From Escherichia phage SD2: a stretch of 64,000 nucleotides of DNA. A model generated the notes under the pieces. It made no database searches. It saw only the letters and a list, made by a program, of their open reading frames with translations, and had not been told where the DNA came from. The translations under genes and the position numbers were made by a program. The stretch lies in the sequence record PQ821640. The stretch is one strand, 5' to 3'. Shown piece by piece: positions 12,042 through 51,261 of the stretch (position 1 is the first letter of the stretch; each line of letters opens with the position of its first letter).

Positions 12042-12174
12042 TAAATATTATTTTGTACTCTGTTAATAAATTATTTAATTTGTTTGTTGGATTATGATAT
12101 CTGGTTTTTAAAAGGCATACTATCTCTTAACTACTACTTATAACAGAACAGTAAAATCATTTTTATAAAAAGGA

Positions 12175-12382
12175 CAAAATTATTTAAAGTTTTTACAGAT
12201 TTTTGGATACAAATTTTGAAAATGAAAAGTTCAAGTTTGGTCAAAATTATTTAAAGTTTTTGTATGTATTTCTATCCAGATTTTGAAAATGAAAACTTCA
12301 ATTTTTTAAAAATTCCCCAGTTTATTTAAAGTTTTTTTACCTTTTTCCGTAGAAAAATCAAAAATGAAAAGTTCAATTTCGT
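12175..12382. repeat. three tandem direct repeats of about 68 bp
   Basis: Each unit begins TTATTTAAAGTTTTT and ends TTTTGAAAATGAAAAGTTCAA; AT-rich, non-coding. Confidence 0.7.
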
Positions 12383-13509: not shown

Positions 13510-13569
13510 TTGACACTGAAAAATAATTTGGTAATATATACTCCATAAGGCGGGAAATGGTTTCCCGCC
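13510..13569 (+). promoter_or_regulatory. promoter (TTGACA-16-TAATAT) plus hairpin GGCGGGAAA-TGG-TTTCCCGCC
   Basis: Perfect 9-bp stem at 13549-13569, read directly. Confidence 0.65.
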
Positions 13570-13591
13570 AAAACAAAGAAAGGGTAACACA

Positions 13592-13954
13592 ATGAGCAAG
13601 CAAATCAATACTATCATGTTAAACCTGGTATCTTTCCGCGATGACGTGAAAAACCTTTCGCGTGATGCAGTGGATGCACGGATCGAAAGCTATCGCACAC
13701 AGATCGCAACGTTACCGCTGAAACGTGATCAACATGCCGCTAATATGATGCTTGATGCTATGATTAAAAAGATGATTCAATGTGATCTTACCCTGGCTTA
13801 TGAATATGCTGGCGATCTCTTTGTAACATATAGCAAGCCCGTTCCAGGTATGAGCACCACGGAAGAATTGCATGCCTTAAATCTGCGACAAGATGCATGG
13901 GATAACATGCGCCGTGTTATGGTATGGGTAGAAAGCGGTAAAATTTACGAATAA
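13592..13954 (+). CDS. hypothetical early protein
   Basis: 120 aa; AAGGG SD. Confidence 0.7.
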   Translation: MSKQINTIMLNLVSFRDDVKNLSRDAVDARIESYRTQIATLPLKRDQHAANMMLDAMIKKMIQCDLTLAYEYAGDLFVTYSKPVPGMSTTEELHALNLRQDAWDNMRRVMVWVESGKIYE

Positions 13955-15144: not shown

Positions 15145-15510
15145 ATGGCTAAAAATATTAATGTTTCTGCTTATGCTACCCTGGCTAATACTGCTAAAAT
15201 TGAACTATCCAGCATTGAAGCGGTACATATTAGCGCCCGTCGCTGGTTTCAAAAGTCTTATGGTAATACTTATTTCTCTTTGATGGTTGACGTTGAGATC
15301 GGCGGTAAACTGATTGAAGTCGTTAACGTTCCGTTTCATTATGGTTATGGTGATCATTTTGATACCGTTGCCCTGGAAGAGTTTAGCAAGGTTATCAACC
15401 TGGAAGGTAAAGAGTTTTCAAATTATGCTTATCTTTCCCGTTTTTGCCGTGATAATGGGATCGCTGTATACAGTCATGCAAGCGATGTTAAACGTAAAAA
15501 AGATTTATAA
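15145..15510 (+). CDS. hypothetical early protein
   Basis: 121 aa. Confidence 0.7.
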   Translation: MAKNINVSAYATLANTAKIELSSIEAVHISARRWFQKSYGNTYFSLMVDVEIGGKLIEVVNVPFHYGYGDHFDTVALEEFSKVINLEGKEFSNYAYLSRFCRDNGIAVYSHASDVKRKKDL

Positions 15511-15516
15511 AAAGCA

Positions 15517-15576
15517 TTGACAGCACGAATAAAAAGAGTAAAATGTTTCATATCAGGACGGGGGAACGGTTTCCCC
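15517..15576 (+). promoter_or_regulatory. promoter (TTGACA-16-TAAAAT) plus hairpin GGGGGAA-CGG-TTTCCCC
   Basis: Read directly. Confidence 0.55.
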
Positions 15577-15599
15577 TCCTAACAAAGAGAGAAATAAAA

Positions 15600-15782
15600 A
15601 TGGCTAAATGCACTATTTGTAAGAAAGAAATAGTATTAGTTCCAAGCGCCCGTGAACGTGCCGCTAAGTTCGGTGGCAAACCGTCAGACTATACGAAAAT
15701 GTTTACTACCCATGCAGCTTGTCAAGTAGCAAAACGTTCACAAGAAAGCGTAGAATTAATGCGTAAACTTTCCAAAAAATAA
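15600..15782 (+). CDS. small Cys-containing protein (60 aa), possible zinc ribbon
   Basis: Track ORF started inside the promoter; ATG at 15600 follows GAGAGA; CTICKK...HAAC. Confidence 0.6.
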   Translation: MAKCTICKKEIVLVPSARERAAKFGGKPSDYTKMFTTHAACQVAKRSQESVELMRKLSKK

Positions 15783-16117: not shown

Positions 16118-16177
16118 TTGACAACGTTTTTTAATCTGGTATAGTTTATCACATAGGGCGGGAAATGGTTTCCCGCC
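16118..16177 (+). promoter_or_regulatory. promoter (TTGACA-16-TATAGT) plus hairpin GGCGGGAAA-TGG-TTTCCCGCC
   Basis: Read directly. Confidence 0.65.
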
Positions 16178-16199
16178 AAATGAAAGAAAGGTTATCATT

Positions 16200-16427
16200 A
16201 TGGCTATCGTTATTGTTCGCGTATCCGGCACGGTTGGAATCTCCCAGGTAGTAGCAGTTATCACCGAGAAGAAAGGGGATGATCTTCACTCCTCCTTGAA
16301 TAGCTGGGCGGTCGCTAATTTCGGGCAATGGTCGAGCGTTGAGTATATCGAATCCTACCAGGTGCCAACGATTAGCCTAACCGATCTGAATGTTGATCGC
16401 TTATTGTGCCTGGATGGATTAAACTAA
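16200..16427 (+). CDS. hypothetical early protein
   Basis: 75 aa. Confidence 0.65.
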   Translation: MAIVIVRVSGTVGISQVVAVITEKKGDDLHSSLNSWAVANFGQWSSVEYIESYQVPTISLTDLNVDRLLCLDGLN

Positions 16428-22065: not shown

Positions 22066-22890
22066 CTTAAGACCATCTAACCTATAAAATAATAAGTTAT
22101 CTAACTAAATTAAAACTAATTATCTCACCTTTATTTATAACTTACTGTTACTATCTCATTGATAACCTTATATTAAACAACAATAACTAATATAAATTAT
22201 TACTAAGCTAAATATAATCTATCTAACCTTTAAAACTATAATTATAATCTATCGAATTGTTGCACAAAGTAACTATTAAATTGTTAGTAACATTACTAAA
22301 TAATTAATATCCTATCTATTTATGATCTAATCTTTACCTTCCTATTTATTACCTAAATAATCATTTCATACCGTAATCATTTCATACAATAATTATAACA
22401 AGAAATATAATTAACAAGCGTATCATTAGCAGCCTATGCCGGACACATAGGCGGCTAATAATAACGCAACTACACACCCCACATAATAACCATCACCGAT
22501 AGTTATTATTTGTGCTTATGTAGCTTGCAACAACTGCAAGCGCAACAATATACATGGTATATTGTATTCCCTTACATTGTTGCGGTGCGTTATTATTAGC
22601 TAATGTTTGGAACATTGGCTATAATATAAGCTATCCAATAATAAACATAGTGAATAATAACCCTGATGATCATAATGCGCCACCTTCCAGGGGGCGCTAT
22701 GTGAACACAAAGAAATCTTTCTTGTCAAGAAAAATATTACCATTATTGCGCAAAATTATTTACATCTGAATAGATGGTTTTTCATACTATTGCCCCATAT
22801 AGCCTATCATTTGTTGAGCCTACTTTCTTAAAAGCGCAATAAATTAGAATTATCTTGATTTTTAGGGCGTTTTATAGTATAGAAAATATG

Positions 22891-22915
22891 CAAATGATAA
22901 TCATTATCAGTTATC
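22891..22915. promoter_or_regulatory. Fur-box-like site AATGATAATCATTATC
   Basis: 16 consecutive matches to the E. coli Fur consensus as I recall it. Confidence 0.5.
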
Positions 22916-23070
22916 TTCCACGGGTGGCACTATTTCACGCAGGATCATTTCATTTGGCAAGGTGTATATAGATGTTTAGACTTGCCAAGCCATTGATTTG
23001 CTTAGAATTTATCTGTTTTGTTGTGAGTAATGCCTTTCTTGCTCAGAAAATAATCAAAAGTCTTATAAGT

Positions 23071-23114
23071 CATTGAATGATAATGCAAATGATAATAATT
23101 CTCATTGATATTTG
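23071..23114. promoter_or_regulatory. degenerate tandem Fur-box-like motifs
   Basis: GAATGATAATGCAAATGATAATAATTCTCATTGATA. Confidence 0.4.
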
Positions 23115-23512
23115 AGGGGGACGGTCAGCAGAAATCGGGGGGCGCTGAAAATCGCGTTAAGCACCTCTCGCAAGCGAGCAGTATTTTGCGGCAAGTTATT
23201 GATATTATTGACTTTACGCTTATGAAAAGGGGGTGTGTCGAAATAAATCGGGTATACCGGAAAATTTTTGTGGCATAGATATTTATTTGTCTATATTATG
23301 TACAAAGGGGTGTGTTAAAAATATTAGGTATATATAGAATAATTGATAGGGAAATCCTATACTAAATCCTTCATTATTGCAGCGGGTGAAAGACAGAATC
23401 GAAGATGCAAATAATGCTTGCATTGGATAGAAATGTCTGTATAGTGGTTTGCATACCGCGCACGACGCGTTTCCATTTTCAATAAAATGTTAGCATTATG
23501 GGGAGGTAGAAA

Positions 23513-23980
23513 ATGAGCGAAAAACCAGTGAGAGCTTCCACAATATTGGAAGCATACCTGCAATGCGTTGTAGATTACGTCAAGAGAAACTCCAGCCTAC
23601 TGGACGTCTACCGTGCAGATGATGGCGATGTTGGTATTGTCTATGTGAAACACACTTTATCCGCGCGTAATGAGGTTTTCCGTGCAAGTATGTTAGGGTG
23701 TGATCGTGTTCGTGTGAACTATTTAGACCCGAACTATCGCCATGCTCTTGAAGATATTGAAGATTATCTTCCTCGCTGCCCGACAGGTAATGCAAAAGTG
23801 GCAGAAGAAGCCCCACAAGGTGTTGATTATCGTGTAGCCTTGTGGAAAAAGGCACGTCAACTACAAGTGCTGAATGAAATGAAAGAAGAGATTGAAAAAG
23901 AACTGAAAGAAGATTTTGGTATGCTTCCAAAAGACGCTTTGAAATGGTATGATGAACTAGGAGGAGAAAGTTATGAATAA
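23513..23980 (+). CDS. hypothetical protein
   Basis: 155 aa; GGGGAGG SD. Confidence 0.7.
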   Translation: MSEKPVRASTILEAYLQCVVDYVKRNSSLLDVYRADDGDVGIVYVKHTLSARNEVFRASMLGCDRVRVNYLDPNYRHALEDIEDYLPRCPTGNAKVAEEAPQGVDYRVALWKKARQLQVLNEMKEEIEKELKEDFGMLPKDALKWYDELGGESYE

Positions 23981-24149
23981 AGGAACTACTGTATATTTAG
24001 TGACTAAGAACACCCCAGGTTGGAATCAGTGCACAACAACTCCGTATAAGATTTGTGCAACATTGGAACTAGCACGACGTGCAGAAGCAGAAGTTGATGC
24101 TATGCGATACAGCTATGGTGAAATCATTCCTTTTACTCTTCAACAATAA
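23973..24149 (+). CDS. small hypothetical protein (58 aa)
   Basis: MNKGTTVYLVTKNTPGWNQCTTTPYKICATLELARR...; GGAGGAG SD; overlaps upstream stop. Confidence 0.45.
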   Translation: MNKGTTVYLVTKNTPGWNQCTTTPYKICATLELARRAEAEVDAMRYSYGEIIPFTLQQ

Positions 24150-24160
24150 GGATTTGTGTA

Positions 24161-24613
24161 ATGTTTGAAATTGGTAAAGTGTATCGTTTTAAGAACGCAT
24201 CTTATATCCGTAAGTTTGCTAATATGTCTGAGTGCAATAGCAGGATTGCTTCTTTCTTAGGTGATTCCTATTTTCGTGTATTAGATGTGGATGACTGGTA
24301 TGGTGTCACTGCTTTGCAATCCTTAGCAGGAGAACAAGAAATTATCGCTCAAAATGAAGGAGACTTTCTTCAGTGTTACACGTTGCTTGCAAAAAGTGAG
24401 TTTGAATACTTTGTAGAAGTATTAGAAGAAGCACCAAAAAGTAAACACGAAGAGAAATACCTGCTTGTAGTGGATGGAGTTCCGATCATGGAAACCATCT
24501 CCCGTGAGGAAGTTGAAAAAGAGGCAAAACGTTACAAACTGGATCGTACACAGAGTGTAGTCGAAGTCTATTCTCTTGTTGGTGTTGCAGATATTAATGT
24601 GACCATTGTATAA
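24161..24613 (+). CDS. hypothetical protein
   Basis: 150 aa. Confidence 0.7.
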   Translation: MFEIGKVYRFKNASYIRKFANMSECNSRIASFLGDSYFRVLDVDDWYGVTALQSLAGEQEIIAQNEGDFLQCYTLLAKSEFEYFVEVLEEAPKSKHEEKYLLVVDGVPIMETISREEVEKEAKRYKLDRTQSVVEVYSLVGVADINVTIV

Positions 24614-24825
24614 TATATATGTAATGACAGATACATTCTTCGTGTATCTGATAAGTCTCCTATGTTTGACTGGCGGGGCTGGTGGCTACTGGCTCCGATG
24701 CAAGGTCTGACTGACGTGGAAAAGGAGGCTTATGTGTATACAAAAGAAGAGATAGAAGATAGCCTTTATTTGACAGATAATATTAAGAATGGTATCTTTG
24801 AGTGTAAATTGAAAGGAGAGGAAGA

Positions 24826-25125
24826 ATGACTGTTACAGAAAAACTGCGCTGTATTGCAAAGCAAAGTGGGGAAGGCTTATGGTTTCCTATTGATGAAGTT
24901 ATTCAAGACTGTTATGATCAGGCAAAAACTGGCAAATACTCCAAGGCATTTAAACCATCTGTTTTCGGTTTGGATGACTACCCGACAAATGAACAAGCAA
25001 AGAAACGTCAAGTTGATTTGATTGATCTTGCTATGGAAGCACTACGAGAGCGTGGACTTAGTAAGGTGTATGCTTTAAACACCAAAGAAGGTTTTGTAGA
25101 TTCAGTGATCGTAGACTGGCATTAA
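24826..25125 (+). CDS. hypothetical protein
   Basis: 99 aa; AAGGAGAGGAAG SD. Confidence 0.7.
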   Translation: MTVTEKLRCIAKQSGEGLWFPIDEVIQDCYDQAKTGKYSKAFKPSVFGLDDYPTNEQAKKRQVDLIDLAMEALRERGLSKVYALNTKEGFVDSVIVDWH

Positions 25126-25134
25126 GGAGAAGCC

Positions 25135-25503
25135 ATGCAAGAGAATAATAAAGTGTGTAACATGAAAAGCAGCCCCTATTTGCTACAATTTTATGAGTGG
25201 TGGTTGGAACAAGAAGATACAAACTTTAGCAAAAAGCATTATGGTCTTTGCACGTGTCTTGTAGACTTCTTATACAACATTGCTTGGATAAAAGATGTTG
25301 AGAATGTAGCAAACCTTCAAGCCTCTGTACGAGAGGAAATGAAGGAACAGTTTAAGAAAGCAGGTTTGAACCATTTACATCCATTTAATACAGATTTCTC
25401 ACATTACTTTACAGAAACAGAGTTAGGCATTGCACACCTTAACAAAGAACGTGTACAATGGGTGATTGATCGTATTCGTGATATGGAGAAATACAATGGT
25501 TAA
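25135..25503 (+). CDS. hypothetical protein, paralog of 26127..26711
   Basis: Shares LLQFY, LHPFN and HLNKxRxxWV motifs with the 26127 ORF. Confidence 0.7.
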   Translation: MQENNKVCNMKSSPYLLQFYEWWLEQEDTNFSKKHYGLCTCLVDFLYNIAWIKDVENVANLQASVREEMKEQFKKAGLNHLHPFNTDFSHYFTETELGIAHLNKERVQWVIDRIRDMEKYNG

Positions 25504-25714
25504 GTTTAAAACTTTCTGTGCAATCTCTGTTTGTCTTATTCTTGCATACGTGTTATTCTCTGGTATCATTCGTTTAGGTGATCATATGGCAAGAGAAGCT
25601 CGTGAAAGTGAAGCTAAAAAAGAACAGTGTATTGTGTTCAAGCATCAAAGAAATGCTGAAAAGTTTCTCGCACTTGATTGCAATCGTTATGTATCTTATC
25701 AAATGTATGAGTAA
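25496..25714 (+). CDS. membrane-anchored small protein, paralog of 30205..30429
   Basis: N-terminal TM helix then C-x3-KH-x3-AE-x-FL; start trimmed to ATG at 25496. Confidence 0.6.
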   Translation: MVKFKTFCAISVCLILAYVLFSGIIRLGDHMAREARESEAKKEQCIVFKHQRNAEKFLALDCNRYVSYQMYE

Positions 25715-25723
25715 GGAGGATTT

Positions 25724-25948
25724 ATGGTAAAACGTCTGGAATGGGATGCGTGTACTGCTCACGCTTGTCACTGCGATATTGTGGAAGATCCTAATGGAGA
25801 AATGGTGTATTATGAGAACTACGAAGCATTGCACAATGCTGTGATTGCTTTGCTGGATGATATTAGCTCACGCTACCCAGGACAACAATTCACGTGTCCA
25901 CATATTCAACTGTTAGCCAAACTTACGGAGTATCCAAGTGTTCCATAA
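25724..25948 (+). CDS. hypothetical protein, paralog of 31078..31341
   Basis: Shares CDIVxDPxGxxV motif. Confidence 0.65.
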   Translation: MVKRLEWDACTAHACHCDIVEDPNGEMVYYENYEALHNAVIALLDDISSRYPGQQFTCPHIQLLAKLTEYPSVP

Positions 25949-26126
25949 TATGGGTGTCCCTGAACAACTACTCTTTATTGTAGGACTAGTAGGCTTATTG
26001 GCGGCTGGAGCTAAAGCCGCTTCTCACACGCGTCACATAATGTTAAGATTTCTATTCCTGCTCCCTTCTATCCTCGTACTACTAGTCATACTGATCGATA
26101 ACATTTTTCACAATTAAGGAGAGGTC

Positions 26127-26711
26127 ATGAGTAAAATTATACCAAGCAGTTATGAATTATTGCAGTTTTATGTATATTATATAGACTGGGTTACTAGATC
26201 GAATGTTAAAGACAATGCGATGTTTAGTAAAAGCATCTGTTTAACGGAAAGTATCTTCCGTTATTGGCACACAGGCAGAAAGTGTACACACAGTGAAGCT
26301 ATGCGCATTGTAGGTGAATACCTGGAGCAATTGCAAAAAGCAGAACTTCCTGTCCTTCACCCATTCAACGAATCTAAAGAAGAATTAGAACAAGAGTGTA
26401 GGGAAGGTAAGTGCCATTTGAATAAAAAACGTATTGAATGGGTAAGGCAACGTTTAGCCGATGCAGGAAAGACTCCTAGTGACTCTGACTATACGTGGTA
26501 CGATGTAGAGGGTTTAGTTCAAGGTTTTGAGGCTTGTGCTATAGATAATACCAACTTTGCCAAAATTTTATGCGAGGTTTATGATCTGGCAGATAAAATC
26601 CGAAATCAAGGATGGAAACAAGAGCATAAAGAATCATATGAACGTCTTGACAAGATTTTCAAACAGATCTATTCTAACCACAAAGAGATGTTCCAAATGG
26701 AGGATGTGTAA
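26127..26711 (+). CDS. hypothetical protein (paralog family)
   Basis: 194 aa; GGAGAGG SD. Confidence 0.7.
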   Translation: MSKIIPSSYELLQFYVYYIDWVTRSNVKDNAMFSKSICLTESIFRYWHTGRKCTHSEAMRIVGEYLEQLQKAELPVLHPFNESKEELEQECREGKCHLNKKRIEWVRQRLADAGKTPSDSDYTWYDVEGLVQGFEACAIDNTNFAKILCEVYDLADKIRNQGWKQEHKESYERLDKIFKQIYSNHKEMFQMEDV

Positions 26712-27394
26712 TGAAAGAGATTATGTTTGAAGGTCATCGTTACGAAGTCCCAGACAATGCAAATTTCATGGCTCGTGATATCACTGGAGATGTGTTCTGG
26801 TTTGAAGATGAACCTGTGTTTTCGAACAAACACTGGTTTTCACAACAATCTTCTTCTGAAAATATGACTTTTGGCTACGTAGAACCTAAAGTCTGTTGCA
26901 GAGCAGCTTCTTCTTTGGTAAAAATTTCCCAGGATGATCAAGAAAATACTCCAGATGTTGTTAGTGCACTACTGAAGTACATTGCAGAACTTGAGAAGAA
27001 AATTAAAGAAGCAGAAACTAAGGTGAAAGCACGATCAGCAATCATTGAAGCTATGTCTGAACGTATTTTAGAACTAGAAGATTTGTGTGGAGAGGCTTAT
27101 CAAGTGGTTGGTGCACTGGCTTGTGAAGCACAAATGTTTGAAACTTCAGAGCAAGTTTCACATATGTTAGATAATTTAAGTGAATGTAAAATGATTCATG
27201 ATGATGTATTGCCATTCTGTTGCAATGTTAACAAAACAGAGCAAACAGAAGATTCAGAAACAGTTTATGTTCCGCTAATGTGTGTTCCAGATCATCTAAA
27301 AGGTGTATTCTCTTGTAAATGGTCACTGTTGAGCGTTACTAATTGTGGTGAAAACTATTCTGCTAACATTGAATTGCTAAAACACGTTAAATAA
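26711..27394 (+). CDS. hypothetical protein with coiled-coil segment
   Basis: 227 aa. Confidence 0.7.
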   Translation: MKEIMFEGHRYEVPDNANFMARDITGDVFWFEDEPVFSNKHWFSQQSSSENMTFGYVEPKVCCRAASSLVKISQDDQENTPDVVSALLKYIAELEKKIKEAETKVKARSAIIEAMSERILELEDLCGEAYQVVGALACEAQMFETSEQVSHMLDNLSECKMIHDDVLPFCCNVNKTEQTEDSETVYVPLMCVPDHLKGVFSCKWSLLSVTNCGENYSANIELLKHVK

Positions 27395-27404
27395 GGAGAG
27401 TAAG

Positions 27405-27809
27405 ATGTGGTCTGTTAAAATCAAATATAATGCGCAGTATTATGGTGGAAAACCTTACGAAGTTGTTATTTGTGATTGTATCTCTAAAGACGTTGCACAG
27501 CTTTGTGGCGCTGGTGTTAGTGAAGCTATGAACAAAATGCATAATTCTACTGTGCGTTTCCTGGATCGGGATATTCCAGAAGATGTAAATGACTATGGTT
27601 ACGAAGTTATTTACAGTGAAGGTAAGAAGCTCTCTATTGAAGATGCACTTAAAGCACTACCTGCTATGTGCAACCCGACACCAGAAGCAGTTAAAGAGAT
27701 TTTACCAGAATCCAACCCCGATGAATATGCTTCTATGGTTGCTTCAGATATGTGGAATCTCTGTCGAGAAACTATGATTAAAAATCTTGTGGAGATGGCA
27801 CATGAGTAA
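27405..27809 (+). CDS. hypothetical protein
   Basis: 134 aa; AAGGAGAG SD. Confidence 0.7.
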   Translation: MWSVKIKYNAQYYGGKPYEVVICDCISKDVAQLCGAGVSEAMNKMHNSTVRFLDRDIPEDVNDYGYEVIYSEGKKLSIEDALKALPAMCNPTPEAVKEILPESNPDEYASMVASDMWNLCRETMIKNLVEMAHE

Positions 27810-28020
27810 AACGCACTTTATACATCCGTTTGATCCAAAGAACAAGGCGGTCATACACCGCCGTTGGACTGAAACGCGCATTACAAAATGTCCTGTGCCA
27901 GCAGCACAGGAATATAACAAAACATATAAAGCAGAATTCGTGGAGTACACCTTTGTGAATAACAAAGGGAAGGAGGTTTATGTTCCAGAATACTGCCTTT
28001 GGATAAAATGGGAGGAATAA
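27802..28020 (+). CDS. hypothetical protein
   Basis: Start trimmed to ATG at 27802; overlaps upstream stop. Confidence 0.6.
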   Translation: MSKTHFIHPFDPKNKAVIHRRWTETRITKCPVPAAQEYNKTYKAEFVEYTFVNNKGKEVYVPEYCLWIKWEE

Positions 28021-28187
28021 TGCAAACATTTTTTATCGACAAGTTCAACAAAAATATGAACACGTGGATGGCAACATTCACTATGCAATTTGCGTCATTT
28101 AAAGAGGCTCAAGAATGGTGCGATCAACACAAGGATTTTGATTTTTACTATCAAATTAATCCAAATCTCTCTCCAGAGGAGAAATAA
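28020..28187 (+). CDS. small hypothetical protein (55 aa)
   Basis: ATG at 28020 after GGGAGGA; TAATG overlap with upstream stop. Confidence 0.5.
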   Translation: MQTFFIDKFNKNMNTWMATFTMQFASFKEAQEWCDQHKDFDFYYQINPNLSPEEK

Positions 28188-28188
28188 T

Positions 28189-28533
28189 ATGTTGGCTGAT
28201 ATTGAAATCCTTATGTACCGACAAGGTATGATCAAGATGTGGCTGGATTCTTTTAGCAACATATACTGCACAGTGCGATCAGCAGAGGAGCGTAAAACGC
28301 TTATTTTATCTGCTATTATTGATAAACAACGTTTCTTCAAAGAAGTTTTGCAAACAGGATTCTCCGATGCAGGAGTAGAGATTGCAACTCTTAGTCTTGG
28401 GGTGCTGTCTTACTTGGAGTCCGTTGTTTTATATGTCTTCTCTTTAGAAGAAGACTTGCAATTGGAAGCATTAAAACTTATTCTAAATGCTGCAATTGAC
28501 ATAGAACAAAATCGAATTGATTCTTTTGAATAA
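28189..28533 (+). CDS. hypothetical protein
   Basis: Start trimmed to ATG at 28189 after GGAGAA. Confidence 0.65.
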   Translation: MLADIEILMYRQGMIKMWLDSFSNIYCTVRSAEERKTLILSAIIDKQRFFKEVLQTGFSDAGVEIATLSLGVLSYLESVVLYVFSLEEDLQLEALKLILNAAIDIEQNRIDSFE

Positions 28534-28549
28534 AAATAAGGAGAAAACT

Positions 28550-29008
28550 ATGCAAGAGGTTAAACATTATCCACATGGTCGTAGTTTTGTAGCTGTATGG
28601 CATGTTCCTGCTCGTAATGAACTGTTTTGTGCATCTTTTCATTATAAAGATGGACAATATTTCACCTATGACGAAACGATGGATGATTTTATCCCAGAGT
28701 GCGATCATGGGTATACACCAATGTTCTTTAAACGTATGAAAGCTCGTTTCTTCGTTACAGATGTTGATGGTGAACCTACTTGGCACATCGAAGAAGATTG
28801 GCAATATTCTGTGGATATTAAAGAAGCCCCAGAATGGGCTACACTGCTGGTACACGTCAAAACCCCTACCCTTGACGTTATGGCGTGGGTTAATCATGAT
28901 GATACCCATTTCCAATACATAAATAGTAGCACAGAAATTTCTGGTGAGATTATTGGTCGTTGGAAACCTACGAATCAGGTTGCTATTGTTGGATATAAGA
29001 CAGTATAA
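28550..29008 (+). CDS. hypothetical protein
   Basis: Start trimmed to ATG at 28550 after AAGGAGAA. Confidence 0.7.
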   Translation: MQEVKHYPHGRSFVAVWHVPARNELFCASFHYKDGQYFTYDETMDDFIPECDHGYTPMFFKRMKARFFVTDVDGEPTWHIEEDWQYSVDIKEAPEWATLLVHVKTPTLDVMAWVNHDDTHFQYINSSTEISGEIIGRWKPTNQVAIVGYKTV

Positions 29009-29009
29009 T

Positions 29010-29204
29010 ATGAAAAATAGCGTAGACTGGGATGATTTATCCGATTTTGAAAAATGGTTCTTAGGTAGTGGTTGTTATGCAGATGGGGATCTCGAAAGAG
29101 ATCCTTCTGGAAACTACACTATGCCATTAACCCAAGGTTTTTATGAGTGCTGGTGCGCAGCACAAGACAACGTACTGAATAAGGAGACAACACAATGCAA
29201 TTAA
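29010..29204 (+). CDS. hypothetical protein (64 aa)
   Basis: Start at first ATG after upstream stop. Confidence 0.5.
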   Translation: MKNSVDWDDLSDFEKWFLGSGCYADGDLERDPSGNYTMPLTQGFYECWCAAQDNVLNKETTQCN

Positions 29205-29434
29205 ACATCGGACAACCAATTTTTGATGCAGATACTGGTCAATATGCAGTAATTGTTGCTCGTATGAGCGGTGATGATTTTATTGTTTCAGAACTACTTG
29301 AATCAGATCCGCAACTGCGCGTAGTATGTGACCTATATCTTCGAGACGAAAGTGATCGCATTGCACTGAAAGAAGATGGTATGCTCTACTACACCTGGAC
29401 TAGAGATCCTGGGGTAACGGAGGTAGAGGTATAA
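29195..29434 (+). CDS. hypothetical protein
   Basis: 79 aa. Confidence 0.65.
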   Translation: MQLNIGQPIFDADTGQYAVIVARMSGDDFIVSELLESDPQLRVVCDLYLRDESDRIALKEDGMLYYTWTRDPGVTEVEV

Positions 29435-29733
29435 TGGTAAGGAACAGGGGTTTACATAAAAGAAGACACCTTACTTACTGGCATCGTAAAGTACATGAAC
29501 CTGTATCAAAGAAAGAATGGCAATACCTGCCTTATGGAAAGGAGCGAAGAAAGTATTTGTTAGCTCATTTAAGGGTACATGGTTCGCTTCCTGTTAACAG
29601 TAAGTGGCAATTGCAAACAGCTTATGACGAAGATATGAAATATTTGTTAAAGAGAGGCATTATTTGCCTTGTTAAGATAGGGCGATGGAAATCTCGTCAA
29701 TCCTATATCGTACTTAAACAGGAGAAACCATGA
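29434..29733 (+). CDS. hypothetical basic protein
   Basis: 99 aa. Confidence 0.65.
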   Translation: MVRNRGLHKRRHLTYWHRKVHEPVSKKEWQYLPYGKERRKYLLAHLRVHGSLPVNSKWQLQTAYDEDMKYLLKRGIICLVKIGRWKSRQSYIVLKQEKP

Positions 29734-29981
29734 ATATCAAAGATGTTGTAGCATACGTAGCAGATGAAGTTAAAAACCATACAAGTTTACTGAAAGTAAT
29801 GGTTGTGGTTAAAAATGGCATTGGACAAGTAAACGTACAACATGTCTTATCTGATACTGTATATAATGTGTTTGAATGTAAAGACACACCTCATGGAGTA
29901 CGTGTGGTGTATATTGATAACAATTTCAAAGAGTGTGTGAGACATACCTTAAAAAATGAGCTAAGGATCACAACCTTATGA
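29730..29981 (+). CDS. hypothetical protein
   Basis: 83 aa. Confidence 0.65.
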   Translation: MNIKDVVAYVADEVKNHTSLLKVMVVVKNGIGQVNVQHVLSDTVYNVFECKDTPHGVRVVYIDNNFKECVRHTLKNELRITTL

Positions 29982-30151
29982 GTTATTATGTTGTACCTTA
30001 TGCCAATAAGTGGAGAGTAAGAGAAACTTGTTTTCTATTCTCCTGGTGGGCTACATTCGGAGATGGTTGTGGAAATGATACAGGAAAGCCTGTAGAGTAT
30101 GACACAAAAGAAGAATGTGAACAGTGGATAAAATTAACACAAAGATGTTGA
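29978..30151 (+). CDS. small hypothetical protein (57 aa)
   Basis: MSYYVVPYANKWRVRETCFLFSWWATFGDGCGND... Confidence 0.45.
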   Translation: MSYYVVPYANKWRVRETCFLFSWWATFGDGCGNDTGKPVEYDTKEECEQWIKLTQRC

Positions 30152-30176
30152 CACGATCTTAACTTCTTGTTAGTAT
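30148..30176 (+). promoter_or_regulatory. sigma70-like promoter (TTGACA-17-TAGTAT)
   Basis: Read directly. Confidence 0.5.
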
Positions 30177-30204
30177 CAATGTGTACTAACGATAAGGAGG
30201 GTTT

Positions 30205-30429
30205 ATGAAGTCTGTAAACAAGTTGCAACAATTTTTGTTATCAACAGCAATCTTTTTGCTTTTGTTAATTGGTATTCTGTATGGTGCATCTAACTTATAC
30301 AATCTACACAACAATGTAGAACATAACATAGAGAAGTGCACCATTCTAAAACACAATAAACAAGCAGAAGATTTCTTAAAGAATAAATGTTACAACTACA
30401 TTGATTATGAGGAGACAAATAATGATTAA
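30205..30429 (+). CDS. membrane-anchored small protein (paralog of 25496..25714)
   Basis: AAGGAGGG SD; TM helix then CTILKHNKQAEDFL. Confidence 0.65.
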   Translation: MKSVNKLQQFLLSTAIFLLLLIGILYGASNLYNLHNNVEHNIEKCTILKHNKQAEDFLKNKCYNYIDYEETNND

Positions 30430-30664
30430 AGAATTAGGCATGCGAGTATACAGTGAGTGGACTCCAAGCAATGGCCCAGGAGTTGTTGCAGCTAAGTGTA
30501 TCAATGGTCGTATTGAGTACCTGGAAGGTTATGAAGATAATGAAGAGTTAGTAGATTATGCTAAATCTTTTATTGAAGATGATACAGACTTTATTGTATT
30601 ATATGATACAGGAGAGTTAGAGTATGGATATGATGGAGATGGGGATATCTTTGAACTTCAATAA
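30422..30664 (+). CDS. hypothetical acidic protein
   Basis: Start trimmed to ATG at 30422 after GAGGAGA. Confidence 0.6.
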   Translation: MIKELGMRVYSEWTPSNGPGVVAAKCINGRIEYLEGYEDNEELVDYAKSFIEDDTDFIVLYDTGELEYGYDGDGDIFELQ

Positions 30665-30746
30665 GAGTAGTAAGTAAGATATAAAGAGTGTATAGTTAGT
30701 AACATTACATATACTCTTTCCATGTATAACATGGAATATTCTCTAC

Positions 30747-30805
30747 CTCGCTATCGCTCGGTATATAAGATTAGGGTAGCATGTTTTTTACGAAAAGTAA
30801 AACTG
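30747..30805 (+). repeat. about 60-bp element, second copy of the one at 5398..5458
   Basis: CTCGCTATCGCTCG...TTAGGGTAGCATGTTTTTT...GAAAAGTAAAACTG versus CTCGCTTCGCTCG...TTAGGGTAGCATGTTTTTC...GAAAAAGTCAATACT. Confidence 0.6.
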
Positions 30806-30859
30806 TTTGTACCGATTGATAGCAGGTTTTTAATAGATTTTATCTATGAGGAGTAGAAA

Positions 30860-31078
30860 TTGTACAAATTATATAAAGCAAAAGATAAGTTTACGGGTAA
30901 TACATCTGGTTTCTATGTAACACCTCGTGGTGTTGCTGTGTTCGATTGGATCTCTGGTACTCCAGATCGTGAAATGATCTCTCTTGTAAAACTGTCGGAA
31001 CAAGAGTACACTTACGGTGACATTACAACATTCTATTCTCGTGCAGAAAATCCAAAACTGATCGCGGAGTGGGAATAA
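30860..31078 (+). CDS. hypothetical protein, TTG start
   Basis: GAGGAG 7 nt upstream of TTG. Confidence 0.5.
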   Translation: MYKLYKAKDKFTGNTSGFYVTPRGVAVFDWISGTPDREMISLVKLSEQEYTYGDITTFYSRAENPKLIAEWE

Positions 31079-31341
31079 TGGTTACACGATATGGCTTAGA
31101 GGTGTACAGCCAAGGTGCTGCTGGTCAGTGTGATATTGTACCAGATCCAGAAGGGGATTATGTTCTTCTTGCTGATTACAATAAGCTAGAAGAAAGACTT
31201 CTGGCTGTGTATGCTAAAGAAAACAAAACAATCTGCCCTTATTGCAGTGGAATGGGTTGGGTGGTTGCAGATGTTGGACAAATGTACGAATGTGTGCCTT
31301 GTAAAACCACAGGATTTATTGAAAAGGATACTGACAAATGA
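31078..31341 (+). CDS. hypothetical Cys-containing protein (paralog of 25724..25948)
   Basis: ATG at 31078 overlaps upstream stop (TAATG); CPYCSG...CVPC. Confidence 0.6.
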   Translation: MVTRYGLEVYSQGAAGQCDIVPDPEGDYVLLADYNKLEERLLAVYAKENKTICPYCSGMGWVVADVGQMYECVPCKTTGFIEKDTDK

Positions 31342-31586
31342 CTGTAGCAGATAAAATGAGAGAACTGGCAGAAAACGCAGAACTTAACAAAGCAAAGGAT
31401 AGTCTACAAAATATCTACTCGTATATTGAGAGAGCAGCTAAAGATGGAGACAGAGAAGTTGCTATATATACGCTTTATCCAACTTTTGTAAAAGTTAACT
31501 TGGATGCTGAAGGTTTTTCAACTTTTATTGATACAGAAACATCTCATTACGACGAAAACTTTACTCGAATAGTTATTCGATGGTAA
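31338..31586 (+). CDS. hypothetical protein
   Basis: 82 aa. Confidence 0.65.
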   Translation: MTVADKMRELAENAELNKAKDSLQNIYSYIERAAKDGDREVAIYTLYPTFVKVNLDAEGFSTFIDTETSHYDENFTRIVIRW

Positions 31587-31691
31587 ATTTCTGACATTTA
31601 TACGCCCTGGCTACCTGGGCGTAATAAATTCAGCTTATATTTGATCCGCGCCTTCGGCGCTTAGGCAAAGCCACGCCACACAGGAGGGTTT

Positions 31692-32102
31692 ATGTTCAAA
31701 TGGTTAAAAGGGTTTCTAACATCTTTGGCAGAACCTAAGCAAGATGTTATTAAAAGCTCTATCACAGGAAAACCGCTTGTTATAGTCACAGGCGGCTTTG
31801 GTCATGGGTTTTCTCTTAAACAAACAGATATAGGTTTACAGGGGTGTCTGATTAGCTTTAGAATCACTCAATTAGGAGATAATAGACAAACAATCTTAGA
31901 TCTTTTCAATGGGGAGTTTGATGATTATTTATCTAAGAGGGATAAAGAACGTCTGATCGAGCATATAAAACACCGCTATGAGCGTGGTGGTTACTATTTA
32001 GAGACAAAACGTAATTCACAAGGTGATCTTGACATAGTTAGCATAGCGTGGGATAATGAATTTAAAACTAAACTTGGTAAACTTCTGGAGGAGTTATGGT
32101 AA
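31692..32102 (+). CDS. hypothetical protein
   Basis: 136 aa; AGGAGGG SD. Confidence 0.7.
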   Translation: MFKWLKGFLTSLAEPKQDVIKSSITGKPLVIVTGGFGHGFSLKQTDIGLQGCLISFRITQLGDNRQTILDLFNGEFDDYLSKRDKERLIEHIKHRYERGGYYLETKRNSQGDLDIVSIAWDNEFKTKLGKLLEELW

Positions 32103-32278
32103 ATATTAAAACAGGTGATATTGTACGTCTTGCCAGCGAAGAAATGTTAATGACTGTAATGGTATCTACTTACGATACTTGCGAAGTGGTGTGGTTTGAT
32201 GTTAATGAGCAACTACAGAAAGCTACATTTGATAAACGTATGCTTCGTAAAGTTGAAGAAGTGAAGGAGGAAGAATAA
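32096..32278 (+). CDS. hypothetical protein (60 aa)
   Basis: Overlaps neighbours by a few nt. Confidence 0.55.
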   Translation: MVNIKTGDIVRLASEEMLMTVMVSTYDTCEVVWFDVNEQLQKATFDKRMLRKVEEVKEEE

Positions 32279-32279
32279 T

Positions 32280-32492
32280 ATGGGAATGTTGCTTCGTGTT
32301 TTTGTGTTTCTTATGTTCTGGATTATCGTTGGTAACGGTATTGTATTTTTGATTTTTCCTGAAGTGATGACAGGTAATGAAAATAAGGCAGTGCCTTACA
32401 TTATGCTTATCGGTTACGGTATTGGTACACTTGGACTACTGTTTGCTGATTGGTTAATCAATACTTTGTTCTCTAAGTACAGGAACAACTAA
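32280..32492 (+). CDS. small membrane protein
   Basis: 70 aa, two hydrophobic segments. Confidence 0.6.
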   Translation: MGMLLRVFVFLMFWIIVGNGIVFLIFPEVMTGNENKAVPYIMLIGYGIGTLGLLFADWLINTLFSKYRNN

Positions 32493-32493
32493 T

Positions 32494-32766
32494 ATGTCGG
32501 AAAACTTACCTAATGTTTTCTTTTGTTTTGTAGATGGTGTTACACAAGAAATTATAGTTGACGAAGAAGGTATGTTTACTTATTTTGCATCTGAAGAAGA
32601 GGCAAAACTATCAGCTATGAAATGTATAAGCCAAATGTCAGTACCTGCTGTCAACAGGTTCGGTATTGCCCAGGTGTATAAAACAGTAACAGAGTTTACA
32701 CCAGATCGAAAACTAACTTTTCTTAACGTTCACTTTGTTTGTAAGTTTAGTGAACTACGACATTAA
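32494..32766 (+). CDS. hypothetical protein
   Basis: 90 aa. Confidence 0.65.
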   Translation: MSENLPNVFFCFVDGVTQEIIVDEEGMFTYFASEEEAKLSAMKCISQMSVPAVNRFGIAQVYKTVTEFTPDRKLTFLNVHFVCKFSELRH

Positions 32767-47066: not shown

Positions 47067-47333
47067 TTACTCCGCAATCTGAGCCATGAATTCACGTAGT
47101 TCAGAAAAACCTCCTACGTGGGTTAGCTGTTCACCATCTTCCACAAAAATCTGAGGAAATGTGCGTGGTAGAACACCTGTTTTCTCTAAAACCAGATTCT
47201 GAATCTGATCTAAAGAATAGTCTTCATCTAAGGTAAGATATTTAAAATCCTGTTCACGCTGTTCTAGTAGAATCTTAGCGTTAGTGCAGAAAGGACAATT
47301 TGGTTTACCGTAGATAATAAAATTCATTTTCAC
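47067..47333 (-). CDS. glutaredoxin-like protein
   Basis: CPFC active-site motif in IIYGKPNCPFCTNAK. Confidence 0.85.
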   Translation of the reverse strand: MKMNFIIYGKPNCPFCTNAKILLEQREQDFKYLTLDEDYSLDQIQNLVLEKTGVLPRTFPQIFVEDGEQLTHVGGFSELREFMAQIAE

Positions 47334-48160
47334 TCCTTGTTTAAAAGTATAGTTAAAGTTCTTACAATACCGCTATCAACACTTCGCGGATTTAAAGTAG
47401 GATCTGTTTTTAAATAAGATGTTGCTGGTCTGACTGCTTTGGAATTATAGGTTGAAGCAGATACAGGATTAACTGTAACAGATAAATCTATAACAAGAAA
47501 TATCTTTCGTGCAAAATCATACCAAGAAATATAATCTGCACCTGCATAGTGTACAATTTTACTATTTACACCATCTTTTACAAGTTTAAAAATTGTTTCT
47601 GCAAGATCAGGTGCATAAGTAGGACATGACAAATGATCACATACTACATTAAATTCTTTTTGACCACCGTTGTAGCGTTCCAACATAGTTTTCAAAAAGT
47701 TATGTCCAAATTCACTATAAACAGAAGCTGTTCTGATAATAAGTGCTGTAGGACAAACTGTTTGTACTAAAGTTTCACCTAATTGTTTACTGTAACCGTA
47801 GGTGTTCAAGGGGTTTGTTTTACTATCTTCTGTGCCAGCAACATGCCCATCAAAAACATAGTCTGTTGAAATATGTACAAACTGTATCAGTAAATCATTA
47901 CATGCTTTGGCAATGTTTGTTGCACCGTATGCATTAACATTTATACAGGTGTTAACATCTTCTTCAGCTTTATCTACTGCCGTGTAAGCCGCACAATTCA
48001 CAACAACATCAGGCACATGCTGTACAAGACTATTCATAACATCTTTAAAGTTGGTAATGTCTACATCACTTGCTTCAATCAAAATAACATCTTCGGGCGC
48101 AACTTTTGCCAAAGACTGTCCTAATTGACCTTTTGAACCAAAGATTAAAAATTTTGTCAA
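47330..48160 (-). CDS. rmlD: dTDP-4-dehydrorhamnose reductase
   Basis: N-terminal Rossmann FGSKGQLG; last gene of an rmlB-A-C-D array; overlaps rmlC by 4 nt. Confidence 0.8.
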   Translation of the reverse strand: MTKFLIFGSKGQLGQSLAKVAPEDVILIEASDVDITNFKDVMNSLVQHVPDVVVNCAAYTAVDKAEEDVNTCINVNAYGATNIAKACNDLLIQFVHISTDYVFDGHVAGTEDSKTNPLNTYGYSKQLGETLVQTVCPTALIIRTASVYSEFGHNFLKTMLERYNGGQKEFNVVCDHLSCPTYAPDLAETIFKLVKDGVNSKIVHYAGADYISWYDFARKIFLVIDLSVTVNPVSASTYNSKAVRPATSYLKTDPTLNPRSVDSGIVRTLTILLNKE

Positions 48161-49601: not shown

Positions 49602-50591
49602 TTAAACTTTATTTTCCCACCACTCTTTGTTATCTACATACCAATCAATGGTTGAATAAAGTTTTTCTTCAAATGTGCCTTTAGCTTTCCACCCTAATTC
49701 CTTTTCAATCTTATAAGGATTCACTTCATATCTTAGATCATGCCCAGGTCTATCTGTAACCATCTCAATTAGGCTACAAGCATCTGTTTCAGATGGATAC
49801 ACCGCATCCATATAATCACAAATCATATAGATTACATCAATATTAGTTCTAGGGTTTCTGCTCCCAATATTATATGTTTCTCCAGATTTGCCTTTAGTTA
49901 CTACTAGGTGTAATGCTTCTGCGTGATCGTCAACGTATAACCAGTCTCTTACTTGAAGACCATTGCCATAAACAGGGATTGGTTTATTCATCAAGATATT
50001 TGTTATCGTTTTAGGTATTAGTTTTTCTGGATGATGATATGCTCCAAAATTATTTGAACAATTTGTTATAACTGTCGGAATACCATAAGTACGATGCCAC
50101 GCTCTTACCAAATGATCGCTTGCTGCCTTAGATGCAGCATATGGACTACTTGGCTTATAAGGATTCTGTTCTGTAAACGGATAATCCCCTTCTTCCAGAT
50201 CACCATACACTTCATCTGTTGAAATATGATGGAACATTTTAAGATTTGATTTATCTCCCATTAAACGAACAGCTTCTAGAAGATTAAATGTCCCAACAAT
50301 ATTTGAATTTATAAAAACACTCGGTGATGCTATTGAATTATCTACGTGACTTTCTGCTGCAAGATGCATTATATAATCTGGATTAACATCTGCCACAATC
50401 TTAGCAGTTAACTGCGCATTTGTCAAGTCAACACGACAAAACTTTACATTGGGTGTTTCTGATAAATTTCTAGGGTCTGAAGCGTAACCCCATTTATCTA
50501 TAACGTAAATATCATTTTTAGTATTTTTAGCCAGGAAACGAACTACCGCACTTCCAATAAAGCCTAAACCACCTGTTACTAAGTATTTCAT
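49602..50591 (-). CDS. rmlB: dTDP-glucose 4,6-dehydratase
   Basis: GGLGFIGS Rossmann motif and YAASKAASD catalytic YxxxK. Confidence 0.9.
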
Positions 50592-50798: not shown

Positions 50799-51125
50799 TT
50801 ACCAAACGTGTTGAGAAATAATAGTTTCCGTTTCAATGTTATATTTTTCAAGAAGTTGTGCATAGGCTTCTTTTGCATTCTTATTTAGTTGCTCAAGATC
50901 TACAGCTACACTTCCTTCGCCACCTTCTAAATAAATCCCATATATGCAATAAGATGCATCAGCGTCATAGAAAGGTGAGATACGGCTTAAATCAAGACCT
51001 TCTTGTAAGAACCAATTAAAATCTCCATCAAATTCTTCTTCAATTCTAGGATCTTCTCCTACAGCCTCTTCCCATTTATTAAAAGGCGCACCCTGTAATA
51101 TACGCCATGCAATATCAATTCCCAT
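50799..51125 (-). CDS. hypothetical acidic protein
   Basis: 108 aa. Confidence 0.6.
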   Translation of the reverse strand: MGIDIAWRILQGAPFNKWEEAVGEDPRIEEEFDGDFNWFLQEGLDLSRISPFYDADASYCIYGIYLEGGEGSVAVDLEQLNKNAKEAYAQLLEKYNIETETIISQHVW

Positions 51126-51261
51126 TATCTTCCTCCTCTTCTTTTTCTTCCGTATGAACGAAACCTAAACCGTTACAATTCCAACAAGGAATAAATTGTT
51201 CCATACTAACAATAAAATTCCCAGTGCCACCACAGACAGGACAAATACTTACATCATCCAT
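51115..51261 (-). CDS. small zinc-ribbon protein (48 aa)
   Basis: MDDVSICPVCGGTGNFIVSMEQFIPCWNCNGLGF...; GGAG SD. Confidence 0.4.
   Translation of the reverse strand: MDDVSICPVCGGTGNFIVSMEQFIPCWNCNGLGFVHTEEKEEEEDNGN

Follow-up and report, generated by a model that had tools for sequence, protein, structure and literature searches.

Probably old, retained pairs of small homologous genes of three kinds in the phi92-like Escherichia phage SD2

A block of small plus-strand genes in Escherichia phage SD2 contains, judged by sequence, three pairs of homologues between positions 25135 and 31341 of the 64,000-nucleotide (nt) stretch of record PQ821640 that was analysed as a whole (the window). The six open reading frames (ORFs) are the annotated genes gp006, gp007, gp008, gp010, gp022 and gp025 of phage phi92, where all carry the product label hypothetical, and they pair as gp006 with gp010 (pair 1, family A), gp007 with gp022 (pair 2, family B) and gp008 with gp025 (pair 3, family C). 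Our best explanation, which we consider probable as a whole, is that these are old, retained pairs of three different kinds in a phage early block.

Results

Alignment and profile comparisons confirm three homologous pairs

The shared motifs that the initial annotation had reported are present in both translations of each pair: LLQFY, LHPFN and HLNKxRxxWV in 25135-25503 and 26127-26711 (pair 1), a transmembrane (TM) helix followed by C-x3-KH-x3-AE-x-FL in 25496-25714 and 30205-30429 (pair 2), and CDIVxDPxGxxV in 25724-25948 and 31078-31341 (pair 3). The pairwise alignments that it had proposed as a check were run and revealed significant similarity in all three pairs. By BLASTP, gp006 and gp010 share 31% identity over 117 amino acids (aa; E 2e-12), gp007 and gp022 share 41% over 27 aa (E 2e-7; 28% in a full-length alignment), and gp008 shares 38% over 32 aa (E 2e-6) with residues 13-44 of gp025. 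Smith-Waterman scores set against 2000 shuffles gave z values of 16.5, 11.6 and 8.7 and Gumbel p-values of 3e-10, 2e-7 and 8e-6 for pairs 1, 2 and 3, respectively, and the three ranked 1st, 2nd and 4th among the 378 possible pairs of 28 block genes, so that all three survive a Bonferroni correction.

Profile comparisons agree with the pairwise alignments. In a search of 38,880 PHROG profiles the matches are reciprocal, each protein matching the family of its partner, and hhalign with profiles built from orthologues only returned probabilities of 96% for pair 2 (E 2e-9 over 54 columns) and 91% for pair 3 (E 1e-6 over 46 columns). The three pairs are also among the best matches in an all-versus-all comparison of the 320 raw ORFs, where pair 3 is the weakest (E ~1e-3) and, taken alone, not significant after correction for 320 queries. 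Finally, hidden Markov model (HMM) scans of the window with each family detected exactly two members for each of families A, B and C. Together, these comparisons confirm, at the level of sequence, that the three pairs are true homologues.

The copies appear old and are retained within the genus

The region 24000-32500 is 96-98% identical to the phi92-like E. coli myoviruses PHB05, UAB_1 and phi92, which places the source phage of the window among the phi92-like members of Justusliebigvirus, subfamily Stephanstirmvirinae. Between the partners themselves, blastn (word size 7) found at most 29 nt of DNA similarity at 79%, within the pair 3 motif. Moreover, gp006, gp007, gp008 and gp010 are each closer to a relative in the sister genus Phapecoctavirus than to their partner in the window, gp006 for example sharing 36% identity with gp083 of phage ukendt versus 31% with gp010. 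Neighbour-joining analysis of family A placed gp006 with ukendt gp083 and a triplet of genes from phage dw-ec, and gp010 with ukendt gp116; the two are never sisters. These relationships suggest that the copies are old, and that the event that produced the pairs involving gp006, gp007, gp008 and gp010 would predate the split between Justusliebigvirus and Phapecoctavirus.

The initial annotation had called the genes rapidly evolving and accessory, and within the genus neither description is supported. Comparing gene content, we found gp008, gp010, gp022 and gp025 each in 55 of 55 Justusliebigvirus records and both gp006 and gp007 in all six loci examined, with gp006 also appearing as the second place of match in every record among the matches listed. 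The proposed test of substitution rates was run as pN/pS, the ratio of nonsynonymous to synonymous differences per site, pooled by the Nei-Gojobori method over comparisons with six relatives that are not phylogenetically independent. It yielded 0.09 for gp006, 0.13 for gp010, 0.06 for gp008, 0.03 for gp025 and 0.14 for gp022, no higher than for neighbouring genes, in a block whose DNA is 96-98% identical across the genus. Purifying selection on the retained copies argues that each copy would have a function of its own, and old, conserved copies point to ordinary phage early-region architecture rather than to a fast-evolving module.

Family A is a large family of phage domains

The gp006 homologue (25135-25503, plus strand, 122 aa) consists of a single family-A domain: its match to PHROG 2510 (E 1.4e-25) covers residues 9-120, i.e. 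the whole domain of ~110 aa, and PHROG 27059 is matched at E 9e-9. The gp010 homologue (26127-26711, plus strand, 194 aa) carries the family-A domain at residues ~1-118, followed by a C-terminal domain at residues ~120-194, and matches PHROG 27059 at E 1.7e-138 and PHROG 2510 at E 1.2e-17. An HMM that we built from 112 family-A sequences detects gp006 at E 6e-25 and gp010 at E 2e-26, and AlphaFold (AF2), given the same alignment, models gp006 as six helices (predicted local distance difference test score, pLDDT, 88; predicted template modelling score, pTM, 0.80). Across the 112 members F19, L38, P83, F84, R106 and W109 are invariant and G37, C39, Q72 and N103 near-invariant. Besides G37, C39, Q72, N103 and R106 the conserved positions are mostly aromatic or aliphatic, and gp010 departs from the consensus at G37, where it has I (ICL versus GLC). 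In the Phapecoctavirus phage ukendt, gp107 aligns to gp010 residues 7-112 and the adjacent gp108 to residues 120-193, an arrangement that we read as a gene fusion or fission.

The number of family-A copies differs between phages, with two in the window, five in ukendt and eight in dw-ec. The dw-ec copies include a tandem triplet, and two copies stand in tandem on an unrelated phage contig of 59 kb. The extent of the family emerged only when HMMER was run exhaustively over 1.84 billion cluster representatives, which retrieved 1,966 clusters (at 50% identity) at E<=1e-3 and 1,088 at E<=1e-10; a word-indexed homologue search was shallow and had returned 8, 39 and 8 matches for families A, B and C. 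Most family-A proteins are one domain of ~105 aa. In others, for example a protein of 344 aa in the jumbo phages BcepSaruman and Sauron, two or three domains follow one another.

The family-A members tested have no match above threshold in Pfam, NCBIfam or PADLOC, the model has no fold match in the PDB, and gp006 has sub-threshold matches to Crl (E 0.04-0.08). Foldseek against viral predicted structures matched only phage proteins labelled 'uncharacterized', from phages of Escherichia, Pectobacterium, Rhizobium, Achromobacter, Delftia, Klebsiella, Pseudomonas and Burkholderia. By these searches family A is a very large uncharacterised family, so far from phages and phage-like contigs. The family has precedents in existing profile collections, since gp006 and gp010 match PHROGs 2510, 27059 and 6418 and pVOG VOG7392 strongly. 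The alia record labels both copies, and the ukendt record five copies, as VOG7392, so that existing annotation already implies that pair 1 are paralogues. These profiles come without an assigned function, a Pfam model or a structure; the size of the family, its tandem forms and the missing PDB match are established here.

Family B proteins resemble small membrane-anchored proteins

The gp007 homologue (25496-25714, plus strand, 72 aa) has an N-terminal TM anchor and a C-terminal module with cysteines C45 and C62; it matches PHROG 15662 at E 5e-40 and cross-matches PHROG 23204 at E 1.6e-6. Its paralogue, the gp022 homologue (30205-30429, plus strand, 74 aa), matches PHROG 23204 at E 6e-51 and cross-matches PHROG 15662 at E 3.6e-6. 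Hydropathy of gp007 reaches 2.5 at residues 8-25, and the maxima near the N-terminus on the Kyte-Doolittle scale (18-residue windows) are 2.5 for gp007, 2.4 for gp022 and 3.3 for ukendt gp097. Lysines precede the TM helix in family B sequences, and a neutral or acidic stretch follows it; a SignalP signal peptide is annotated for gp022 in the phi92 record. After a linker comes the module E-(K/Q)-C-x3-K-H-x3-A-E-x-F-L-x3-C-x2-Y-(V/I)-x-Y, in which C45 is invariant and C62 near-invariant across the family alignment. These features suggest a topology with the N-terminus in the cytoplasm and the C-terminal module of ~30 residues in the periplasm, where the cysteine pair would form one disulfide.

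Family B was found only on Stephanstirmvirinae-like contigs of ~140-150 kb, and a locus search with its alignment returned three loci. The gp007 orthologue in ukendt, gp097, is 49% identical and directly follows the family-A gene gp096, as gp007 follows gp006 in the window, whereas tblastn detected gp022 in the 55 Justusliebigvirus records only.

Small periplasm-facing membrane proteins are known among the early proteins of phage T4, namely Spackle (Sp) and Imm, which act in superinfection exclusion, and the RI antiholin. Family B is like them in its small size, its N-terminal signal or anchor, its short periplasmic domain (as predicted) and its placement among presumably early non-structural genes. 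In contrast to the T4 proteins, family B matches no Pfam, NCBIfam or PDB entry, and its topology and disulfide are predictions.

Family C shares an N-terminal module joined to different ends

The gp008 homologue (25724-25948, plus strand, 74 aa; PHROG 23083 at E 5e-56, cross-match to PHROG 22955 at E 5.8e-4) combines an N-terminal cysteine/hairpin/helix module with a C-part containing 'YPGQxFTCPHI'. The gp025 homologue (31078-31341, plus strand, 87 aa; PHROG 22955 at E 6e-63, cross-match to PHROG 23083 at E 4.7e-4) joins the N-module (residues ~1-45) to a DnaJ-like CxxCxGxG half (residues ~50-87). In the N-module, of ~45 aa, a cysteine is followed by D-P-x-G-x-x-V, D-Y-x-x-L and a helix. The hhalign alignment carries the shared part up to the first 'CP' of the gp025 zinc knuckle, and gp008 keeps only that 'CP'. 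Pair 3 thus has only its N-terminal module in common and is not a whole-gene duplicate.

Residues 53-79 of gp025 (CPYCSGMG...CVPCKTTG) hold one exact CxxCxGxG motif and one CxxCxxxG; the second, CVPCKTTG, fits CxxC and differs from CxxCxGxG in the spacing of its glycines. With Pfam, gp025 scored 15.0 bits (E 0.031) against DnaJ_CXXCXGXG (PF00684), below the gathering threshold of 32.7 bits, and 15.8 bits against Anti-TRAP (PF15777), below the threshold of 32 bits. The CxxCxGxG motif is the likeness to the cysteine-rich domain of DnaJ and to anti-TRAP, and the phi92 record notes a 'DnaJ-like zinc finger'; unlike those proteins, gp025 has a single finger and a phage-specific N-module and is without a J domain. 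The full gp025 architecture is confined to Justusliebigvirus, outside of which only residues 53-87 are matched, for example by ukendt gp126, which is without the N-module. Separately, a 47-aa CxxC zinc-finger ORF at 51115-51261 on the minus strand of the window resembles the C-terminal half of gp025 (E 5e-4); its Pfam matches, to DUF5351 and DnaJ_CXXCXGXG, are below threshold.

The two parts of gp008 also occur in other combinations. gp008 and the N-half of ukendt gp102 share 57% identity, the C-part of gp008 stands alone in a 69-aa ORF of Kagunavirus, and the N-module is joined to other C-termini elsewhere (e.g. in the protein P0211). In Shigella phage CWP003 (Wifcevirus), a protein of 191 aa begins with two N-modules in tandem, followed by a coiled coil and another domain, and it matches the PHROGs of gp008, gp025 and ukendt gp102. 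By matching the PHROGs of both partners the CWP003 protein bridges pair 3 and indicates that the module is mobile.

The N-module also matches positions 4-50 of the 182 positions of the Lar-like PHROG 3592 weakly (gp008 at E 0.006, the CWP003 protein at E 5e-5), whereas Pfam Lar_restr_allev (PF14354) matches neither gp008 nor gp025. As only the N-module part of the PHROG 3592 profile is matched and Pfam Lar is not, we rejected the label 'Lar-like' for family C.

The pairs lie in a packed block near the left genome end

A homologue of the left direct terminal repeat (DTR) of phi92, a 343-bp repeat whose label is the annotation of positions 1-343 in the phi92 record, lies at 22817-23159 on the plus strand of the window (blastn of these positions, 96% over 343 nt). 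The first paired gene starts 2.0 kb downstream of it, at 25135, so that the six genes sit 2.0-8.2 kb inward of the genome's physical left end. The joined physical ends thus lie inside the window, and the plus-strand block comprises the right end together with the left end of the genome.

The block consists of ~30 small same-strand genes with Shine-Dalgarno sites, the start and stop codons of which mostly overlap or closely abut. A Shine-Dalgarno site lies 6-9 nt 5' of the ATG in all six paired ORFs (for gp006, taaggag 6 nt upstream), and the gp007 start overlaps the gp006 stop by 8 nt. Only four gaps between the listed block genes exceed 50 nt, and one of them, of 53 nt, directly precedes gp022. 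A consensus scan placed in this gap, at 30148-30176 on the plus strand, a sigma-70-like match (TTGACA-17-TAGTAT with an extended -10 TG; 10 of 12 positions), a possible candidate internal promoter by consensus match only. Promoter-like sites in the region number 64, compared to 49.8 +/- 6.9 in shuffles, which is no significant enrichment; we therefore claim no operon map.

Genes around the pairs are gained, lost and fused

Over long time scales the block is plastic: family A ranges over 2, 5 and 8 copies, neighbouring genes are gained and lost within the genus, and deletion chimeras occur. What varies within the genus lies elsewhere in the block, partly at indel hot spots: gp001 is replaced (without a match in four of six comparison loci), an extra gene is found between gp007 and gp008, alia, EC.P2 and W22 lack gp011, and in BME3 the loss extends over gp011-gp013. 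The extra gene has 249 nt (positions 2581-2829 of both loci L006 and L008) and encodes ~82 aa, yet is annotated as an 'M20/M25/M40 metallo-hydrolase'.

Two metagenomic proteins are chimeras of block genes. P0001, which maps to 26127-28533 of the window, joins gp010 residues 1-113 in frame to the gp015 C-terminus at a shared 'DAG', with ~1.8 kb removed; P0210, mapping to 25724-30664, joins gp008 residues 1-30 to gp023 residues 38-80, likewise in frame, at a shared 'YED', with ~4.7 kb removed. Their junctions at microhomologies of three residues point to active illegitimate recombination in the block.

A fourth pair, absent from the initial annotation, is formed by gp001 (23513-23980) and gp020 (29730-29981), which rank 3rd of the 378 pairs by Smith-Waterman, align at E 4e-4 by BLAST and have a common match in ukendt gp087. 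A third, weaker member of their family may be gp016 (28550-29008). Other families have several copies in ukendt and a single one here, namely gp024-like genes (gp124 and gp125, at 15255-15702 of the ukendt locus L003; 30860-31078 of the window), VOG6032 (gp085 and gp099, at 2159-2380 and 6485-6706 of L003) and gp003-like genes (gp089 and gp090, at 3270-4502 of L003; 24161-24613 of the window). Multi-copy families thus appear to be a general property of the block and of its Phapecoctavirus counterpart. Large virulent phages commonly carry multigene families among their early genes, and the present case is an instance of this, not distinct in kind.

Searches of the block also recovered records with Campylobacter host labels. 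The 'Campylobacter phages' A145 and A110a are ~97% identical to E. coli phi92-like phages across the block, C3 has gp022 at 94.6% identity, and in B15, as in Phapecoctavirus, the match is limited to the zinc-finger half of gp025. The host labels of these records (MG065645, MG065689, MG065656 and MG065650) look doubtful.

Origin of the pairs

The explanation that we favour assigns the six genes to three old multi-copy families and lets each pair arise differently. Family A would expand and contract repeatedly, as arrays of copies and as tandem-domain fusions, and gp010 would be a family-A domain that was fused with, or never split from, a second domain. In family B, gp007 and gp022 would be bitopic inner-membrane proteins, the periplasmic module of which is stapled by one disulfide. 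In family C, a mobile N-module of ~45 residues would have been recombined onto a zinc finger (gp025) or a helical part (gp008).

Several observations weigh against this explanation. The clades of gp006 and gp010 in the family A tree have bootstrap values of 57 and 51, weak support that reflects a short and saturated alignment. The pN/pS of gp007, at 0.55, stands apart from the other five genes, with few substitutions underlying it, and gp007 splits into many clusters at 90% identity; some of this variation comes from replacement of the 3' end at an indel junction next to an inserted gene. For gp022 tblastn detected no Phapecoctavirus orthologue, so that this gene could have originated by a genus-specific duplication followed by fast divergence. 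Duplication within the genome and separate acquisition of related genes cannot be told apart. The label 'early' is a reading of position and gene style, and the searches of Pfam, NCBIfam, PADLOC and the PDB (by sequence and by fold) were negative above threshold for all six genes. Finally, the near-invariant cysteine, glutamine, asparagine and arginine of family A could mean catalysis rather than the binding that we propose below.

The competing explanation that survives best is that the partners are xenologues, acquired separately by recombination with other phages. Family A is spread over phages of many Proteobacteria, and copies on unrelated contigs are at least as close to gp006 and gp010 as these two are to each other: the distance of gp006 to a copy on an unrelated small contig is 0.65, as close as any Phapecoctavirus copy, with gp010 at 0.77. 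A Wifcevirus has the family C module without the gp008 C-part, a Kagunavirus has the C-part without the module, and the microhomology deletion chimeras attest to active illegitimate recombination in the block. However, family B is confined to Stephanstirmvirinae-like genomes, which makes an outside donor unlikely for pair 2, and the tandem family-A copies in dw-ec, at locus L012 and in BcepSaruman indicate that duplication in situ does happen. We consider it unlikely that xenology explains the pairs overall, while for pairs 1 and 3 separate acquisition is a serious alternative to duplication from which the data cannot separate it.

The interpretation given in the initial annotation, if read as recent local duplications and rapid divergence that have made a fast-evolving accessory module, is improbable and, for Justusliebigvirus, largely refuted. 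It accords with the placement of the copies within 6 kb on one strand in the order A-B-C then A'-B'-C', with the variable copy number of family A among related phages and the tandem triplet of dw-ec, with the gain and loss of neighbouring genes, with the restriction of gp022 to the genus and with the high pN/pS and many clusters of gp007. Against it, the partners retain no DNA similarity beyond the short match in the pair 3 motif, gp006, gp007, gp008 and gp010 are closer to their sister-genus orthologues, gp008, gp010, gp022 and gp025 are fixed in 55 genus members, pN/pS is 0.03-0.14 in five of the six genes, pair 3 shares a module only, and a matching gene order arises by chance in 1 of 6 cases. 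As the homology is true, duplication and divergence holds in the broad sense; what lacks support is the local and recent part. A segmental duplication of a three-gene cassette, as the A-B-C and A'-B'-C' order might suggest, is likewise unsupported: no further pairs link the two segments, and while the A-B adjacency is kept in ukendt (gp096-gp097), B' and C' are not adjacent to A'.

The least probable reading, that chance or convergence has produced short similar motifs in small proteins of biased composition, above all those of pairs 2 and 3, can point to alignments of 27 and 32 residues and to the loss of pair 3 on multiple-query correction in the 320-ORF comparison, but the shuffle scores and ranks of both pairs, the reciprocal PHROG matches, the hhalign results with orthologue-only profiles and the independent CWP003 protein bridging pair 3 make it very improbable.

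Possible functions and wider meaning

Position, size, packing and retention lead us to propose, with low confidence, that the six old, retained genes encode early host-takeover proteins that would work by binding rather than catalysis; host-takeover, anti-defence or exclusion roles are in each case suggested by position only. Family A proteins would bind host or defence proteins in the cytoplasm. The envelope would be where family B acts, e.g. in superinfection exclusion or by inhibiting a periplasmic or membrane host factor. Family C would provide a small adaptor module on different effector ends. In each family the paralogues would have been kept since they differ in target.

We found no experimental work on the six genes in the literature covered, and the papers on rV5, the BASEL collection and Stephanstirmvirinae are silent on them. 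Profiles of defence and anti-defence proteins (PADLOC-DB) gave no credible match to any of the six. The anti-TIR gene Atd1 has been reported as an anti-defence gene specific to these genera (PMC11724313) and is a MazG-like pyrophosphatase (10.1101/2022.06.09.495361). That one of the six genes is Atd1 was rejected, as the Pfam scan gave no MazG match.

The finding itself matters little, as large virulent phages normally have uncharacterised paralogous small genes in their early regions. The main gain is the delimitation of family A as a large, Pfam-less and structurally unmatched phage domain with a high-confidence model and defined conserved residues, which makes it a reasonable target for anti-defence, toxicity and interaction screens. 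More speculatively, and with doubt on our part, family A might be a major unrecognised class of phage effectors, a phage-restricted six-helix fold whose paralogues are specificity variants, each neutralising a different host factor or defence protein in an accordion-type arms race. This reading draws on its ~2,000 clusters and on its repeated amplification into arrays of 2-8 copies and tandem-domain proteins. The block also offers clean examples of small-gene remodelling: fusion or fission (gp010 versus gp107 and gp108), module shuffling (gp008, gp025 and the CWP003 protein) and microhomology deletions (P0001 and P0210). Moreover, phi92-like phages infect an unusually broad range of hosts and feature in phage therapy collections, which lends some practical value to telling fixed early genes from dispensable ones.

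Other repeats in the window

The all-versus-all ORF comparison also returned a spurious antisense ORF 'pair' at 13-16 kb, which arises from a repeated regulatory cassette of 71 nt (13524-13594 and 16132-16202, 79% identity). In the cassette, a -10 element like TGGTAATATA precedes a GGCGGGAAATGGTTTCCCGCC hairpin, which is followed by a Shine-Dalgarno site and an ATG; the -10 element resembles the late-promoter motif reported for rV5 (PMC3606486). tRNA genes were rejected as the cause of this ORF 'pair', as the window has no tRNAs. Three tandem AT-rich repeats lie at 12159-12379, where long ORFs are few; they are listed as 79-nt copies 67 and 75 nt apart that are 72-73% identical to the reference copy. 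Lastly, a further pair of paralogues is found on the minus strand at 47330-48160 and 49602-50591 (28% identity over 162 aa, E 3e-7).

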